Origin: a virus
Lineage: Duplodnaviria > Caudoviricetes
Direction: 5' to 3' (one strand)
Length of the DNA: 64,000 bases
IMG/VR virus record: IMGVR_UViG_3300021399_000155
Coordinates: 4,722-68,721 of that record
In this document: positions 3,897 to 46,045 of the stretch, in pieces
How the letters are laid out: every line of letters starts with the position of its first letter
Position numbering within the stretch: the stretch's first letter is position 1
Notes under the pieces: generated by a model
Database searches by the model: none
What the model saw: only the letters and a program-made list of their open reading frames with translations
What the model was told of the DNA's origin: nothing
Program-made: the position numbers and the translations under genes

Positions 3897-4877
3897 TTAC
3901 AAATATCTTTGATAGTTGTTTTTTACATTATTTTCTTCGATGTATACATACGACATTGTTGTGTCGAGCTTTTCGTGGCCTAATAGATGAGCTACCTCTT
4001 GTATACTCATTCCATGGTCAATTAAATTTGTTGCCATGGTTTTTCTGAAACGATGTGGATGAACTTTTTCAACACCAGCAAGACAAGCAAGCTTTGATAG
4101 ATTGCGTCTGATTGATCCGGGTTTTAACCTCGTATTGATACGTGACAGAAATAGTGGCTCTAAGTTATCTTTGCGACTGTCAAGATATCTTCGGAGCAAC
4201 AGTGCTGTCACATCATCGAAGTAGATGATGCGTTCCTTGTTTCCTTTTCCTAACACAACGCCCTCTCTCTTTTCGAGGTTGATACTGTTACGATTGAGTG
4301 AACATACTTCGCTAATTCTACATCCGGTAGCTAACATGAAGCGCATGATTGCGCTATCTCTCTGATTGAAGCAATTCTCTTGAAGCTGTGTTAGCTCTAC
4401 ATTGGATAGAGGCTTTCGAACAACCTTCTTATGTTTGATTTTCGAAAGGTTTAGACACGGATTCCTTTCGATAAGCCCCTCTTTGTAAAGCCAATTAAAA
4501 AGAGAGGAGAAGATACTTCTTTCCCCGTCCAGTGTGCTGTCTTGAACACCTCTGCTCTTTTCGGCGGAGAAATATTGGCGTATGTGATAAACTGTAATTT
4601 TATCAATCGGTATCTTGGTATATTTTAATAGTTTTTTCACTATGTAATCATACCTTGCGATTGTTCCATCGGATTTTCCTTCCACCCGTTTTGCAGATAG
4701 GAAAGCATCGAATAAGTCGATGTTCATGTCATATTGACGTTCCTGTTCTTCCGCAATGCATTTGTCAATGTTCGTCATGAATACATCTATTGTTCTTTCG
4801 ACTTGTTCTTTTGTTAAGAAACATTCTAGTTCTTTTTGGAAACATTCTATTATAGTTTGTTTCAAGGCATCAGTCAT
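3897..4877 (-). CDS. tyrosine recombinase, XerC/D-like
   Basis: TGCRISE, GKGNKER, HPHRFR, LGHEKLDTTMSY: complete R-K-H-R-H-Y catalytic set. Confidence 0.9.
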   Translation of the reverse strand: MTDALKQTIIECFQKELECFLTKEQVERTIDVFMTNIDKCIAEEQERQYDMNIDLFDAFLSAKRVEGKSDGTIARYDYIVKKLLKYTKIPIDKITVYHIRQYFSAEKSRGVQDSTLDGERSIFSSLFNWLYKEGLIERNPCLNLSKIKHKKVVRKPLSNVELTQLQENCFNQRDSAIMRFMLATGCRISEVCSLNRNSINLEKREGVVLGKGNKERIIYFDDVTALLLRRYLDSRKDNLEPLFLSRINTRLKPGSIRRNLSKLACLAGVEKVHPHRFRKTMATNLIDHGMSIQEVAHLLGHEKLDTTMSYVYIEENNVKNNYQRYL

Positions 4878-6875: not shown

Positions 6876-7210
6876 TCCTTCCCTTTCGGCAGTTTTTCTT
6901 CATCAATCTGCCAATCGGAATTCCATGCCCAAGCACAGTAACCCATACCGTCCGAATTGTCGATCTCGTCTGGGTAGGCCATAGCCATGATTCTGCCCCA
7001 CTCCCGGAAAGTAAAGTAAAGAACGGTGCCATCATTTAGTAGTGGAACACCATGTTTATAGTTTTGGTGAACTTCGCCGGAAAAGTGGTAGCCATTCTCT
7101 TTTAAAGCATCGGCTACAATCTTCATGCGTTCATAGTAATCAATATAGTTGTTTACTTCGTAATCGTCGTTCCATCCAACCCAGTCGGAGACATATATTT
7201 TTTCACTCAT
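6872..7210 (-). CDS. hypothetical protein
   Basis: GGAGG RBS; coupled to int start. Confidence 0.7.
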   Translation of the reverse strand: MSEKIYVSDWVGWNDDYEVNNYIDYYERMKIVADALKENGYHFSGEVHQNYKHGVPLLNDGTVLYFTFREWGRIMAMAYPDEIDNSDGMGYCAWAWNSDWQIDEEKLPKGKE

Positions 7211-7363
7211 ATTATGCCCTCCAATTATCCAAGATTACCTCAACGGCTTCATCGAAGGCATCAATGATCCGATTTGCCCGGTAATTATCTCCGTCACTAT
7301 GCAATTCGCTGTACACAACGTCCATAAATTCTTCCCTGACCTCTTCAAGTTCTTTCGGCGTCA

Positions 7364-7726
7364 TCATGATTCTCCTCCCCGAGGTAACCCGTTTAGATTA
7401 TACCAGTTAAGAATGTCTCTCACTTGTCTCCCGATCTTGTAACCATTTAAATCAGAATATGTGATGTACCTTTCTTTCGTAATTGGATCCAGAATTCGAA
7501 CTCCTTCTTTTGTTGGCTCAATTACAAGCGCTTTATGTCCATCCTTCGCAATCAGTTCTGTCCCGGTAACAGGCTTCTTAGCTTCGACGTTGTTCTGCCC
7601 TTTGATAATGTCGCAAGCATAATCATCAAGAACAAGAGTATTGAATCCTTCGATCCTATATAAAGTTCTTCTGTCCGTCTTAATAACCTCGCCGATCTTA
7701 ATGGTTAAAGTGTCTCCTACATTCAT
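7364..7726 (-). CDS. hypothetical protein
   Basis: operon packing, RBS. Confidence 0.65.
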   Translation of the reverse strand: MNVGDTLTIKIGEVIKTDRRTLYRIEGFNTLVLDDYACDIIKGQNNVEAKKPVTGTELIAKDGHKALVIEPTKEGVRILDPITKERYITYSDLNGYKIGRQVRDILNWYNLNGLPRGGES

Positions 7727-7729
7727 TCT

Positions 7730-7954
7730 TTATTCACCCCTCTTTTCGAACATTGGTTTATTCCATGAAGTAGATGACATATATGTCCCTTTTGTAAAAA
7801 CATATTCTTCATCATCTGCAACGCTTAAATATTTTTTCATATGCTTTGCTTCTTTTGTGTGCGATGTTTCGTGCTCTAAGTGATAAGAAATCCATTCCTT
7901 AATTTCTGCACCAAGAAACACCGTTCCCACAGGATAACTCAGGATATTTTTCAT
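7730..7954 (-). CDS. hypothetical protein
   Basis: operon packing, RBS. Confidence 0.6.
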   Translation of the reverse strand: MKNILSYPVGTVFLGAEIKEWISYHLEHETSHTKEAKHMKKYLSVADDEEYVFTKGTYMSSTSWNKPMFEKRGE

Positions 7955-8314
7955 TCGCCTTTCATCCTCTTTTCTGACTATTCAAACATCGGACAAATTT
8001 CGTTTTTATCTCTCAATGGTACTTTCGAAGCATCCAGTACTGTTCGTAATTTGACACTCATCATACTCATGCACCTTAAACGCATCTTCCGGGTAATACA
8101 TGCATAAGTCATGTTCACAATCATAATGTATGCAATTGCCGCAACATTCTTCCATTTTTTCACCTCCTTAAATGGTTCTTTAAATAGGTCAATCATCTTT
8201 TTCTGACTTGGCACATATTTTCCCAACAATATACCCGCACATAAAGATTACATTTCCAATCGCTAAATATATCATGCACATTCTATACGACCTACTTTAG
8301 ATTATATGTTTGCT

Positions 8315-42155: not shown

Positions 42156-42579
42156 TTGTTTCACCGTTCCTTTCTCGTTCTTCTTCTTCGATAAAATCAA
42201 TCAGTTCTTTTGTGGTGTAACGGTTAATGGTATCCATATGGATTGCGGTTAGAAGACCGCAAGCATAATATCCTTTGTCTGATGGGATATAATCATGATA
42301 CCTACCTTCCGGCGGCTCTTTCTGAAAACCAACATAAACTTCTAGCTCATTTGTGTCTTTGTTCATGATATATCCGTATTCGCAGAACAAAGAATCTAAA
42401 ATAAAGTCATCGTCTCTTTCTCTTGGGTTGCTAATGATCGGTTCGATCCAGTTAGTTTCGCATCCCTTTAGGTAATTTATAAAAGCTTCTCCTAATCCTT
42501 CCGGGTACGAATCATAATGATTGTAATAAAGTCTGTCTTTCCCGTTCTCATGGAACCCGAACGTTCCCCGTGTACTCAC
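42148..42579 (-). CDS. conserved phage protein (MSTR...HxDxYP family)
   Basis: STRGTFG...YNHYDSYPEGLG; GTG start with GGAGG RBS. Confidence 0.65.
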   Translation of the reverse strand: MSTRGTFGFHENGKDRLYYNHYDSYPEGLGEAFINYLKGCETNWIEPIISNPRERDDDFILDSLFCEYGYIMNKDTNELEVYVGFQKEPPEGRYHDYIPSDKGYYACGLLTAIHMDTINRYTTKELIDFIEEEERERNGETNV

Positions 42580-43223
42580 GCATTTGCCCTCCAATCTTCC
42601 CTCGGTTTATTAAGTTCCCCATTCTTTTCTTTCTCGATCCACTCGTCTAATGTGAGTGGAACATAGTCTGAAAACATACAAAAGCAGTTGATGATGTTTA
42701 CGGGAGGGGCAATCGGTTCATCACTCCCTCTCGTATATCTTTTGTAGTTTCTGATAAATTCCTTTGCTTGTTCTAAAACTGTAATGTCTTGTGTGTTATG
42801 AATATGTCCATGAAGCATATACACTTTAGGATTTCCGTCTTGATCCCGCCGGAATTGTCCGTTATAACACAGAATTGGATAATGACACAGGACGACCTTT
42901 CTTCCATTGTCATTCATCTCATGATATCCGCCAACAAACTTGAACAGCGACTGGTCAAAGCGACCGTCTTTGATATATCTGTCATGATTCCCAACAATTA
43001 AATACTTCTTCCCTTTTAACTGCTTTACCACTTCTGTTGTTTCTTCATAGTTACCGAAACTAAGATCGCCCAAAATAACTACTTCGTCATTCTTATGGAC
43101 TCGCTTGTTCCATTGATCAATCATATAATCGTTCATAGCTTCCACGCTAGGGAAGCCACGATTATCCATTCTCGTATTTACCCCGGCGTGGAAAAAGTGA
43201 TTATCTGCTATGTAATACCTCAT
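42576..43223 (-). CDS. calcineurin-like metallophosphoesterase
   Basis: IADNHFFH, LGD, GNHD, CHYP, HGHIH. Confidence 0.9.
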   Translation of the reverse strand: MRYYIADNHFFHAGVNTRMDNRGFPSVEAMNDYMIDQWNKRVHKNDEVVILGDLSFGNYEETTEVVKQLKGKKYLIVGNHDRYIKDGRFDQSLFKFVGGYHEMNDNGRKVVLCHYPILCYNGQFRRDQDGNPKVYMLHGHIHNTQDITVLEQAKEFIRNYKRYTRGSDEPIAPPVNIINCFCMFSDYVPLTLDEWIEKEKNGELNKPREDWRANA

Positions 43224-43507
43224 AGTCTTATCACCTGATTTTCGAACTTCTTATAGGCGTCAAGATACCATTCATCCTTATCTCCATTGTACGTGACCTC
43301 ATAGTACATCCCATCAGGAAGCGAGGTGGAAATCAGATATTTGCAGTTCTGTAACACCTTACACTTCCAAACAATGTAAACTTCGTAGAATGGAAGCTTA
43401 TCAGATTTATCAAGGTGTTCTTTTGCATACTGAGTTGCGATCATAATGGCTCTATCATCCATAACATCCACATACTGAGTTACGATCATAATATCTCTAT
43501 CATCCAT
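43220..43507 (-). CDS. DUF6275-like protein
   Basis: IVWKCKVLQNCKYLISTSLPDGMYYEVTYNGDK. Confidence 0.75.
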   Translation of the reverse strand: MDDRDIMIVTQYVDVMDDRAIMIATQYAKEHLDKSDKLPFYEVYIVWKCKVLQNCKYLISTSLPDGMYYEVTYNGDKDEWYLDAYKKFENQVIRL

Positions 43508-43688
43508 AACATTCTTCTCCTATACTATTTAACTTATCAATTATTTTCTCTTCATATTTCGGGTCTACCCATGTTGTATTTCTGATTGCATCAAGCAACA
43601 TTTGCTTTGCAATTTCTTGTGCGGGGCGTCCCGCCATCTCTGGATGCAATTTCAGATAACTTTTAATGTCGGCATCATAATTGCTCAT
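43500..43688 (-). CDS. hypothetical protein
   Basis: operon packing. Confidence 0.55.
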   Translation of the reverse strand: MSNYDADIKSYLKLHPEMAGRPAQEIAKQMLLDAIRNTTWVDPKYEEKIIDKLNSIGEECYG

Positions 43689-44571
43689 TACGAATTACCT
43701 TAAACATATCATCTACGTTGTCCATGAGCGGATATCTCTTATCAAACGGAGCAGTTGAACTCCGGGCAAACTGCCGATTGACCATGTCAACATAGTAAGT
43801 GAATGTTCCGTCATCCCCGGCATAGAACTCTTCCCATCTTTCCGGCGAAATCTTATCTTTAATATGTAACTGTTCGATAGCCAGATTGTCGAAGCTTAAC
43901 ACCTTTACTCCATTTAACAACCTGAACAGATTGTGTTCCAAAAACGCCTGATTTGCTATAATCTTGTCCTTATTGGCTTCCTTATATGAGACTCCACGGC
44001 GCAGTTCCTTGTAGCCAAGAATTAGGACTTTTAGGTCGTTGCCAATCAGTTTCTCTATTTGCCATGGTGTCAGAACGCCGTTAATAGTATGGACGACTGC
44101 ATTGGGAAACTCTGAAAGTCTGGCAAACAATTCATCTGTTACGGCTACAAGAGAAACGCCAATCCCATAAATCAGCTTTCTTTTTTCTAGATCGTGTAGT
44201 AGATCTATATTGTTAAGAAAGTGGCGTTGATTAACGGTAATGTTAGGGATCACCTGTTTTTCTTTGAGCTTTTCGAGGAACGGAATGAGATCGGGATGTT
44301 CAAAGACATTTCCTCCGCCCAAGGCAGCTTCCGTAAATGGATGAAGAGTGTCAATGAACTTCTCATTCATGATGTCCCCTAGCTTACCATCTGGTGTACT
44401 ACCCTCATGGCACATGGCACACCCACCATCACAACGGTCACAAATCTTGATATCCATATTTTCCGCAAATTCCGGGCGAAACTCGTCGTCTTCTGTTTCT
44501 CTTATCTTCGTTCCATCCTCATAAATCTGCGTATGAACATTTCCGTTCATGTATTCGCCAAGCAGTTCCAT
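43675..44571 (-). CDS. radical SAM protein
   Basis: CDGGCAMCHE (CxxxCxxC); ALGGGN; NITVNQ. Confidence 0.9.
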   Translation of the reverse strand: MELLGEYMNGNVHTQIYEDGTKIRETEDDEFRPEFAENMDIKICDRCDGGCAMCHEGSTPDGKLGDIMNEKFIDTLHPFTEAALGGGNVFEHPDLIPFLEKLKEKQVIPNITVNQRHFLNNIDLLHDLEKRKLIYGIGVSLVAVTDELFARLSEFPNAVVHTINGVLTPWQIEKLIGNDLKVLILGYKELRRGVSYKEANKDKIIANQAFLEHNLFRLLNGVKVLSFDNLAIEQLHIKDKISPERWEEFYAGDDGTFTYYVDMVNRQFARSSTAPFDKRYPLMDNVDDMFKVIRNEQL

Positions 44572-44583
44572 TCCACACCTCCA

Positions 44584-44874
44584 TCAATCATGCCCGTAAT
44601 AACCAAAAGCAATAATTTCTTCTCCGCCCGGGGTTACGTAATTCTCTTTGAATGTTTCGTAACACTCATCCTGCACATCATCGAAGAACTCTTCCGGGCT
44701 ATACACAGCATCTGCTTCATCCACCATTCCCGGCTTATCAAGCTTCCTAAGCCACCTATTGAACACAAGCTCACCGTTTTCCCATTTATCCCACTCGTCC
44801 TTGGTGCAAATTGTTAAACTGTGAACACTACTACTGTTTGTTTCGAATACACTCGTTCTAATCTGCCTCTTCAT
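44584..44874 (-). CDS. ETNSSS-motif protein, paralogue 1
   Basis: MKRQIRTSVFETNSSSVHSLTI. Confidence 0.75.
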   Translation of the reverse strand: MKRQIRTSVFETNSSSVHSLTICTKDEWDKWENGELVFNRWLRKLDKPGMVDEADAVYSPEEFFDDVQDECYETFKENYVTPGGEEIIAFGYYGHD

Positions 44875-45553
44875 TCGCTCCATTCCTCCATTCATAAGTA
44901 TCAAAAGGCTCTTCGTCAGGCGGATACTCTCTCTCTATCTTATCAAGATTAATCAGACCGCTTCTCTTAACGTCGCCCCATGCACCATATTCGTCTCCAT
45001 CAATGATTACGACATACTTCCTATTAGTAAGGAATTCTTTTAAAGAAATCCCTTCTCCCTTTAGAAATCCCTGAAGTAATCCGACGGATTGATGATCGAC
45101 ACCTCCGTAATCTTTACCAACAACTCTTGCCTTTGGAATTGGCTTTTTCTTTTCGCCATTTTTTACATAGAAAAGCCCGTCGCCATACCACTCTGGTTTA
45201 ACCTCGTTTCCATCTTCGTCGTAGTAATATGTTTTCTGCTCTTCACCAAATCGAACTGTTTTTACTTCTGGAAGAATTTCTCTTATAATAGGAAGAAACT
45301 CTGTCTCGAATTGCTCATCTGACGTACACAAGGAAGCAATTGCATAACGTAATTTGTCGTAGAAGCTTGTCAAGATCTCGAATGGGACTCTGTCAAAATA
45401 CAAATTCCAAATCATACTTAAAGCGCCATCGTGAATGTAGATATTCTCGGATTCTTTCTTTGGATCGACATATTCGTCTTCCTTCTTAATAACGAGGCTG
45501 TGCATGGAACTACTGTTGGTTTCGAAACATGATCTCCTTATCTGTCTTTTCAT
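44858..45553 (-). CDS. ETNSSS-motif protein, paralogue 2
   Basis: MKRQIRRSCFETNSSSMHSLVI; DHQS. Confidence 0.8.
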   Translation of the reverse strand: MKRQIRRSCFETNSSSMHSLVIKKEDEYVDPKKESENIYIHDGALSMIWNLYFDRVPFEILTSFYDKLRYAIASLCTSDEQFETEFLPIIREILPEVKTVRFGEEQKTYYYDEDGNEVKPEWYGDGLFYVKNGEKKKPIPKARVVGKDYGGVDHQSVGLLQGFLKGEGISLKEFLTNRKYVVIIDGDEYGAWGDVKRSGLINLDKIEREYPPDEEPFDTYEWRNGANEEAD

Positions 45554-45562
45554 TCTTCCTCC

Positions 45563-46045
45563 TTAATCTCTTGAACACTTCAACCCAACATAATCGTTCC
45601 AGATGAAATCAATGACGGCATCTTTATCATAAAGGTCAATAATGCAATCGCTATCATAATTAGGAACAGATTGATGGTCGATGTACGGTGCTTTCTCATC
45701 ATCATAAAGATCTATCTTATTATTCCACACAACCCTTACACCTTTGCACTCTGGCAAATACTCTTTTACGGCATCTTCAAGCAGTCCCCACGAATAACTT
45801 TCATACATGTCTGTTAAATCTGAATCCCAATGTCCGGTAATGTACCAAATTGCGGTTGCAAGATAAGACAGTTTCTCTTGCTGAGTAGTAAACCTTCCAT
45901 CGCAACCAAACACACCAAATTTAGTTTGCAGATATCCATCCTTCATCTTGATCTTGTTTGGTCTACGTCCACTACTATCGATTGTTAAAGAATGAACACT
46001 ACTACTATTAGTCTCGAACACGCTGTTTCTCTTCTGATGTTTCAT
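45563..46045 (-). CDS. ETNSSS-motif protein, paralogue 3
   Basis: MKHQKRNSVFETNSSSVHSLTI; DHQS. Confidence 0.8.
   Translation of the reverse strand: MKHQKRNSVFETNSSSVHSLTIDSSGRRPNKIKMKDGYLQTKFGVFGCDGRFTTQQEKLSYLATAIWYITGHWDSDLTDMYESYSWGLLEDAVKEYLPECKGVRVVWNNKIDLYDDEKAPYIDHQSVPNYDSDCIIDLYDKDAVIDFIWNDYVGLKCSRD

Follow-up and report, generated by a model that had tools for sequence, protein, structure and literature searches.

Why should three adjacent phage genes begin with the same serine-rich stretch of residues, and what might this stretch have to do with the radical S-adenosylmethionine (SAM) enzyme encoded directly after them? The question is raised by a locus in a 64,000-nucleotide stretch of DNA from a virus of the Caudoviricetes (positions 4,722 to 68,721 of IMG/VR record IMGVR_UViG_3300021399_000155; this whole stretch is referred to here as the window), where genes for proteins of 160, 231 and 96 amino acids (F160, F231 and F96) are followed on the minus strand by a gene for a 298-amino-acid enzyme. 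An original prediction, made from the sequence of the window, had noted the common FETNSSSxHSL start of the three proteins and had proposed a phage-encoded maturase acting together with variable effectors; its observation is confirmed here and its interpretation is partly supported. Judging from comparison with related loci, the four genes appear to represent a self-contained phage module, in which one divergent radical SAM enzyme and a set of tag-bearing clients travel together through phage genomes that are otherwise unrelated. The system is widespread, uncharacterized and of the kind 'radical SAM enzyme with protein clients'. From this context, the likeliest reading, with chances that seem about evenly balanced, is that the enzyme uses the N-terminal tag to bind its clients and also modifies them at this site.

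Organization of the four-gene module

The module is encoded on the minus strand in the order F160 (45563-46045), F231 (44858-45553), F96 (44584-44874) and enzyme (43675-44571), and each of the four genes is preceded by its own GGAGG-type ribosome-binding site. The spacers within the module measure 9 and 12 nucleotides, the F231 and F96 genes overlap by 17 nucleotides, and a scan of the window revealed no minus-strand terminator-like site between 47605 and 42000. Because of this spacing and overlap and of the lack of a terminator between them, the four genes are most likely to be co-transcribed and translationally coupled, in agreement with the single operon, with tagged genes directly upstream of a CxxxCxxC enzyme, that had originally been described. 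A bidirectional terminator-like hairpin (CCCTCTG..CAGAGGG) at 47626-47605, just downstream of a sigma/DUF262 gene, is likely to mark the start of the long minus-strand operon that holds the module. Longer TTG starts are possible for F160 and F96; the ATG starts were chosen because they place the motif at the offset that is fixed in the family.

The N-terminal tag

The tag is encoded by the first 22 codons of F160 (45980-46045), F231 (45488-45553) and F96 (44809-44874, overlapping the last F231 codons), all on the minus strand, and in F160 it reads MKHQKRNSVFETNSSSVHSL. All three proteins share M1, K2, Q4, R6, S8, F10, E11, T12, N13, S14, S15, S16, H18, S19, L20 and I22, with 16-19 of the first 22 residues identical in pairwise comparison, which bears out their common start. 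The corresponding nucleotide identity is 34-49 of 66 positions, and between any two genes 9-10 of the identical residues are specified by differing codons, including TCN/AGY serine switches. Since identical residues use different synonymous codons, the tag is held by long-standing purifying selection on the peptide, and its conservation does not result from recent gene conversion or chance.

The position of the motif is likewise constrained. It starts at residue 9 or 10 from Met1 in all 190 tagged open reading frames (ORFs) of the first 80 loci and the window, with the consensus MK+QIR+xV-[FYW]-E-[TS]-N-S-S-S-x-H-[SA], of which E, N, S-S-S and H are invariant in this sample; rare SST and SSA variants appeared in loci added later. 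Three loci (L001-L003) stand out in that their tagged genes, from both of the protein families described below, encode WETNSSS and lack basic residues before the motif. In two of these (L002 and L003) the change from F to W (WETNSSS for FETNSSS) has affected the three tags jointly, on the one scaffold as on the other. The enzymes of L001-L003 constitute a clade of their own with an insertion, that of L002 and L003 lying at 7041-7970 with the tagged genes upstream, and the F to W change may reflect co-variation of tag and enzyme. An apparent ETNS sequence at the C-terminus of the L072-type enzyme homologues was rejected, as it is a shifted-frame reading of the ATGAAACAAAT start of the next gene.

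A conserved N-terminal stretch could be a signal for capsid targeting, secretion or degradation, to which the enzyme gene would be only a neighbour, and the tandem paralogues of this locus recall the internal proteins of phage T4, which share an N-terminal sequence. However, the tag contains no hydrophobic signal-peptide core, the module is found among replication and nucleotide-metabolism genes and not structural genes in both the window and the Microcystis phage Ma-LMM01, and the link of tagged genes with the enzyme is kept in gene fusions and in phages that differ widely; a targeting role is therefore barely credible. Self-cleavage at the Asn-Ser or Ser-Ser bonds, with an N-terminal nucleophile or pyruvoyl group as its product, was the alternative put forward by the original prediction; it would require no radical SAM enzyme. 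Pairs of this type with a nearby His do resemble self-cleavage sites in general terms, and the tag lies at the very N-terminus. Nevertheless, no support emerged for autoprocessing, which we consider very improbable: no N-terminal nucleophile (Ntn) hydrolase or pyruvoyl fold is found among the Foldseek and VIA matches of the F231 model, which is weak evidence, the same site would have to work on two unrelated scaffolds, and the near-obligate linkage and fusion with the radical SAM enzyme would be left unexplained.

Association of tagged genes with the radical SAM gene

The co-occurrence of motif and enzyme, proposed as a check in the original prediction, is near-obligate in both directions. Among the 80 viral loci found via F231, 77 contain the enzyme, nearly always directly downstream of the tagged genes, and of the three that do not, two are cut off by a contig edge. 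For loci from bacterial or archaeal genome bins the enzyme is adjacent to a tagged gene in 53 of 64 cases, five of the 11 exceptions ending at a contig edge. Conversely, a tagged ORF is present in every one of the 79 new viral loci found via the enzyme, and for 47 of the 48 enzyme clusters defined at <=70% identity a gene of the tagged family lies no more than 5 kb away, on the strand of the enzyme gene. A stricter motif scan located the tag in 45 of 47 clusters, the two misses being a locus with an FETNSSA variant (L087) and one with only 1.5 kb of flanking sequence on each side (L149). No third conserved gene family accompanies the pair, any other family being limited to four of the 48 clusters at most, and each single enzyme gene is associated with one to six tagged genes. 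The motif family without the enzyme is seen only rarely (L021 and L131, weighed below); in three other metagenome-assembled genomes (MAGs) that lack an adjacent enzyme gene, this gene is on another contig.

Tagged domains are also fused to the enzyme in at least two independent lineages. In P0374 (575 amino acids) an A-type tagged domain is followed, after a joint of ~7 residues, by an enzyme domain (34% identity, E 4e-47), while P0470 and P0472 (609-610 amino acids) carry a second, unrelated-looking tagged domain N-terminal to the enzyme; in both lineages the tag occupies the free N-terminus. Given the near-obligate co-occurrence in both directions, the fusions and the lack of a third conserved partner, the comparison supports the view that tagged genes and radical SAM gene form one functional unit. 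In two further proteins, P0436 and P0437, the enzyme is fused not to a tagged domain but to an AAA_33 (KTI12/zeta-like) kinase together with an HD domain. A fusion of FtsH with half of an enzyme (P0461) looks like a chimeric assembly and was disregarded.

The fusions are central to the main rival of tag modification, according to which the tagged proteins would not be substrates but interchangeable partners docked on the enzyme by the tag. Their differing bodies would deliver or select a third substrate, for example a host protein, a sugar, a nucleotide or a nucleic acid. That tagged domain and enzyme are fused in two lineages is typical for stable partners, and the occurrence of several paralogues per enzyme, the fusion of the enzyme to an AAA_33 kinase plus HD domain and the equal closeness of its fold to the sugar-nucleotide enzymes DesII and BlsE and to peptide maturases point in the same direction. 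Moreover, the bodies of the larger protein family (AB, see below) keep an invariant Tyr and two Asp residues, like ligand-binding or catalytic sites. On the other hand, the gene neighbourhoods reveal neither a third conserved gene nor an obvious common substrate pathway, the invariant N-S-S-S-x-H is not obviously needed by a pure docking peptide and, to our knowledge, tag-docked specificity subunits of radical SAM enzymes are without precedent. Docking of interchangeable subunits is thus possible but doubtful, and the same is true of a third substrate delivered by them.

A divergent single-cluster radical SAM enzyme

The cluster motif of the 298-residue enzyme, CDGGCAMC, comprises C47, C51 and C54, and CxxxCxxC is kept in 28 of 29 aligned homologues, the sole exception (L059) having a disrupted N-terminus. 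A GGG[ND] motif, GGGN being the equivalent of the SAM motif, is conserved as well. No Cys outside CxxxCxxC is conserved in the 29-homologue alignment, and several homologues have only three Cys in total. The N-terminus comprises a 35-residue three-stranded sheet with an invariant NGN (N9 and N11); a Pfam scan gave no match to a family of recognition elements (RREs) for ribosomally synthesized and post-translationally modified peptides (RiPPs), and no winged helix was recognized in the enzyme.

The window enzyme reaches 16.7 bits against PF04055, below the cut-off of 29.5 bits; the fused homologue P0470 scores 37.4 bits, and a precomputed PF04055 match is found on many homologues. A match to phrog_16999 ('Fe-S oxidoreductase') extends from residue 31 to 277 (profile positions 5-272 of 288; E 1.2e-38), and that to HxsC (TIGR03977) remains at 15.1 bits, below the NCBIfam cut-off of 267.9. 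Comparison of the enzyme sequence and profile with PDB sequences yielded no significant match. An AlphaFold2 model with a predicted local distance difference test (pLDDT) score of 91 displays the partial TIM-barrel fold of radical SAM enzymes, for which Foldseek gave a probability of 1.00 to the peptide and protein maturases SuiB, CteB, PqqE, SkfB, EpeE and ChlB and likewise to DesII, BlsE, AbmM and BtrN, which act on small molecules. As modelled, the protein is a true but very divergent radical SAM enzyme with a single cluster. Two chemistries named in the original prediction, formylglycine formation as by the anaerobic sulfatase-maturating enzymes (anSMEs) and SPASM-type crosslinking, are not favoured, the enzyme lacking the auxiliary-cluster domain that defines them.

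Inteins are inserted in ~85 of the 90 longer enzyme homologues, at the third Cys of CxxxCxxC or at the GGG SAM motif. Inteins tend toward conserved, functionally important sites, and this colonization of catalytic motifs suggests a widespread and strongly conserved enzyme gene; the retention of CxxxCxxC and the inteins at the cluster and SAM motifs place the enzyme clearly under selection.

Individual homologues depart from this architecture in different ways. P0383 carries a Hint intein from residue 54, the third cluster Cys, and the gene at L111:3629-5704 a LAGLIDADG/Hint intein at the GGG motif (..ELA|CLKGDS...THN|CGGGNPL). In two relatives the enzyme gene seems to be disrupted: at L059:9271-11588 the N-terminal part of the enzyme is replaced and a second fragment is located ~1.3 kb upstream, and at L141:11639-12549 two overlapping ORFs take the place of one gene.

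One tag on two scaffolds

When 350 unique tagged proteins from all loci were clustered after removal of their first 28 residues, two large groups emerged: AB, with 184 proteins of median length 194 amino acids including F160 and F231, and C, with 117 unique proteins of median length 132 amino acids including F96. The three proteins had originally been thought to diverge after the tag, but their bodies belong to two conserved families; of the maturase and variable-effector system, the functional unit is supported, through linkage and fusions, and the variability of the effectors is not.

Four elements outside the tag are conserved in AB proteins: the turn G(R/E)xxF/GW, the helix with KxxY, the motif (V/I)DH and, at the end of a strand, (T/D)G(N/D)(D)(N/E). 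F231, of the A form, displays these as GRxPF-like, DKLRY, VDHQS and IIDGDEY. It is homologous along its whole length to F160, a short form with EKLSY and IDHQS after the tag, and the sharing of KLxY and DHQS by two of the proteins is thereby verified. The ..LKCSRD end of F160 also ends the second half of P0294. In a diverse AB tail alignment Tyr70, Asp153 and Asp187 (F231 numbering) are invariant, and D153/H154 and D185/D187/E188 are conserved. The C family is characterized by xKWxxGEL after the tag and by a C-terminal TTPSGExhVAFGYYG[YH]D, which is ..IIAFGYYGHD in F96. Profile-profile comparison of the AB and C tail alignments with hhalign gave a probability of 0.1%, that is, no detectable relation, and for this reason the same tag appears to sit on two scaffolds without detectable relationship. 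The commonest gene order is A-C-enzyme, where the C gene is the last tagged gene before the enzyme, followed by the A-A-C-enzyme order of the window, in counts inflated by contigs entered twice.

The AlphaFold2 model of F231 has a pLDDT of 87 and a predicted template-modelling (TM) score of 0.83, with residues 1-13 below a pLDDT of 50 and the first strand starting at residue 17. Foldseek found no match to it in the PDB at E<=0.001, an exhaustive VIA search gave a best Z of 2.5 on an inserted beta-hairpin only, and BFVD returned only one uncharacterized protein of the same family. The modelled F231 structure therefore appears to match no known fold, a missing match being no proof of a new one. 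At the sequence level, the tagged-family profile yielded only noise against PDB sequences (SAUGI, E 0.17) and the tagged proteins had no match in Pfam, NCBIfam or PADLOC, while PHROGs gave a weak phrog_28997 match (E 0.002-0.006) for F160 and F96 and none for F231. The idea that the motif might be flavodoxin-like or PIN-like was abandoned, as it precedes strand 1 in the model and no such fold was matched.

Through their own invariant Tyr and Asp residues outside the tag, the AB proteins resemble enzymes or ligand binders, and the motif might be a catalytic or metal-/phosphate-binding loop of the tagged proteins themselves, its E, N, S and H cooperating with the distal D-H and D-x-D; the radical SAM enzyme would then share only the pathway, its own substrate being a small molecule or a nucleic acid. 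The conservation of D153/H154 and D185/D187/E188 in AB is in line with this possibility, as are the tagged genes with an intact motif but no nearby enzyme (L021 and L131) and the RNA-repair genes (RNA ligase, AAA_33 plus HD and metallophosphatase) near some copies. However, C proteins bear the tag without the AB distal motifs and on a body without detectable relation, the model shows the tag as a loose tail at the N-terminus and its motif keeps a fixed distance from Met1 in both families. The constant offset of the tag on two unrelated scaffolds is more easily reconciled with a portable signal for recognition or modification than with an active site embedded in a fold; both the loop function and the mere sharing of a pathway are therefore unlikely.

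Proposed role of the tag

The reading that we put forward is that the enzyme would recognize the exposed N-terminal tag [FYW]-E-[TS]-N-S-S-S-x-H-[SA] of its clients and bind it at or near its [4Fe-4S]/SAM site, where a residue of the Ser-rich stretch would be altered by 5'-deoxyadenosyl radical chemistry. Such a modification would mature both the AB-type clients, here F160 and F231, and the small C-type client F96. Binding and modification are suggested by the portable motif at a fixed offset, the several clients per enzyme, the loose tail, the lack of a third partner and the joint F to W change, and the presence of several tagged genes per enzyme is like that of several precursors per maturase. 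As the enzyme is without an auxiliary cluster, a redox-neutral or SAM-consuming change (epimerization, rearrangement, adduct formation or radical installation) would be our guess as more plausible than an oxidation of the anSME type.

A number of observations weigh against tag modification. The enzyme is without the SPASM/twitch cysteines of the maturases that it most resembles. Its fold gives no indication of a protein substrate, as Foldseek assigned similar scores to the small-molecule enzymes DesII, BlsE, AbmM and BtrN. Fusions of an enzyme with its substrate are unusual, so that the fused forms fit a stable partner at least as well. The invariant polar residues of AB lie outside the tag, which could belong to the AB active site, and the low pLDDT of the tag is perhaps only an effect of the shallow alignment, of 37 sequences, behind the F231 model. 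Finally, an intact tag occurs without an enzyme match in a 114-kb viral record that is 74% complete (L021) and in a MAG (L131).

The pairing of tagged proteins and enzyme was found in no paper or family library, and the module is therefore probably an undescribed protein-modification system. That it amounts to a new and very common type of phage protein maturation, in which a portable N-terminal Ser-rich tag of 10 residues, borne by at least two unrelated scaffolds, is covalently altered by a single-cluster, SPASM-less radical SAM enzyme, is a serious possibility that falls somewhat short of an even chance. The modification or cofactor so formed would be a novel one and would activate enzymes of a new fold that serve the phage during infection. 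Alteration of the tag would imply new radical SAM protein chemistry without auxiliary clusters, and would give a first lead on the function of a family whose modelled member resembled no known fold. The small soluble proteins concerned (F96 or F231 with the 298-residue enzyme, or gp130 with gp128 of Ma-LMM01) make the question directly testable.

Distribution and genomic context

The module recurs in thousands of phages, among them phages of Lachnospiraceae and gut Firmicutes, the 540-kb Lak megaphages and a cyanophage in culture, and a few of its contexts look bacterial. For F231 there are 580 word-indexed relatives, and a search of the tagged-family profile against 1.84 billion representatives retrieved 2299 representative clusters (50% identity) at E<=1e-3, 272 of them at E<=1e-30; none of the 2299 bears an informative name or a domain known to Pfam. 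Conservation is much higher in the enzyme, which has more than 6700 clusters of relatives at 90% identity that are typically 60-77% identical. Among deposited phage genomes it is present in all 15 Lak megaphage records (49-50% identity), and in Lak-A2 it is followed by at least four tagged genes. Nine records of Ma-LMM01 and the related MaMV cyanophages also contain it (39% identity), annotated as 'Fe-S oxidoreductase' or 'hypothetical protein'; gp130 of Ma-LMM01, encoded two genes before the enzyme gp128, starts MLSIQVRQGVFETNSSSTHS. The main text of the Ma-LMM01 transcriptome paper (PMC5780444) mentions neither gp128 nor gp130. A literature search found no paper on the FETNSSS/ETNSSS motif or on the Ma-LMM01 'Fe-S oxidoreductase', and no characterized function of the motif was found in papers or Pfam, in line with the original prediction.

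The window derives from a 68.7-kb viral record with an estimated CheckV completeness of 43%. Downstream of the enzyme are genes for a DUF6275 protein (43220-43507, E 7e-29) and a calcineurin-like metallophosphoesterase (42576-43223), the other neighbours of the module being small proteins without an assigned family and the region not one of structural genes. Searched with blastn, the module region matched no cultured phage, and a search of the ESM Atlas returned only viral 'hypothetical protein' clusters. The public sequencing runs listed as containing the sequence are animal gut DNA metagenomes only, with no RNA run among them.

A metallophosphoesterase is again found near the module in seven other loci (L040, L042, L050, L069, L078, L079 and L131). 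In the enzyme-less locus L021 (8388-12352), genes for a T4-type RNA ligase, an AAA_33 and HD protein and a metallophosphatase follow 2-5 kb downstream of the tagged gene; a link of the module to RNA end-healing genes is a weak hint, those families occurring in only 3-4 of the 48 diverse loci. In the L072 phage group the tagged genes are scattered over 6 kb, with one after the enzyme, and four tandem paralogous genes for small membrane proteins of 118-138 amino acids lie between tagged genes and enzyme (L072:7560-9053). The FETNSSA-type tagged gene and its enzyme (L087:9971-11488) are located between addA-like helicase-nuclease and spoIIIAA-like genes. In a Christensenellaceae MAG the enzyme gene (L149:1501-2376) follows araA- and araD-like genes, and a 286-residue tagged protein is encoded on another contig (L142:2038-2898).

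Comparison with known systems

In structure, the enzyme model comes closest to the radical SAM maturases of RiPPs and proteins (SuiB with its precursor SuiA, CteB, PqqE with PqqA, SkfB, EpeE and ChlB), with Foldseek E-values from 4e-6 to 2e-3 and TM scores of about 0.4-0.55. As in RiPP systems, one enzyme gene stands beside one to several genes with a conserved terminal peptide. In contrast to the RiPP maturases, however, the phage enzyme has neither SPASM/twitch cysteines nor a recognized winged-helix RRE, and its partners are folded proteins of 95-250 amino acids from conserved families and not short hypervariable core peptides.

In its logic, the proposed radical SAM modification of a Ser-containing motif near the client N-terminus is like that of sulfatases by anSME and AtsB. 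The tag FETNSSSxHS, on the other hand, is without (C/S)xPxR, with no Pro or Arg in register, the phage enzyme is without the two auxiliary clusters of anSME and its clients do not have the alkaline-phosphatase fold.

The activases of glycyl-radical enzymes (GREs), with these enzymes and the small spare part GrcA, offer another parallel, in that a small single-cluster radical SAM enzyme serves large and small folded clients, and that C-family proteins end in a conserved aromatic-Gly-aromatic motif. Unlike GREs, F160 and F231 are without the RVxG[FWY] loop, the C-family end ..YG[YH]D is without the Arg-Val context, no ten-stranded barrel is present and the conserved element is N-terminal, Ser-rich and without Gly; the module proteins match no GRE or activase family in Pfam or NCBIfam.

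The closest counterparts are gp128 and gp130 of Ma-LMM01 and their homologues in Lak phages, which represent the same module. Identity between gp128 and the window enzyme is 39%, and the Ma-LMM01 and Lak modules differ from that of the window in gene order and copy number.

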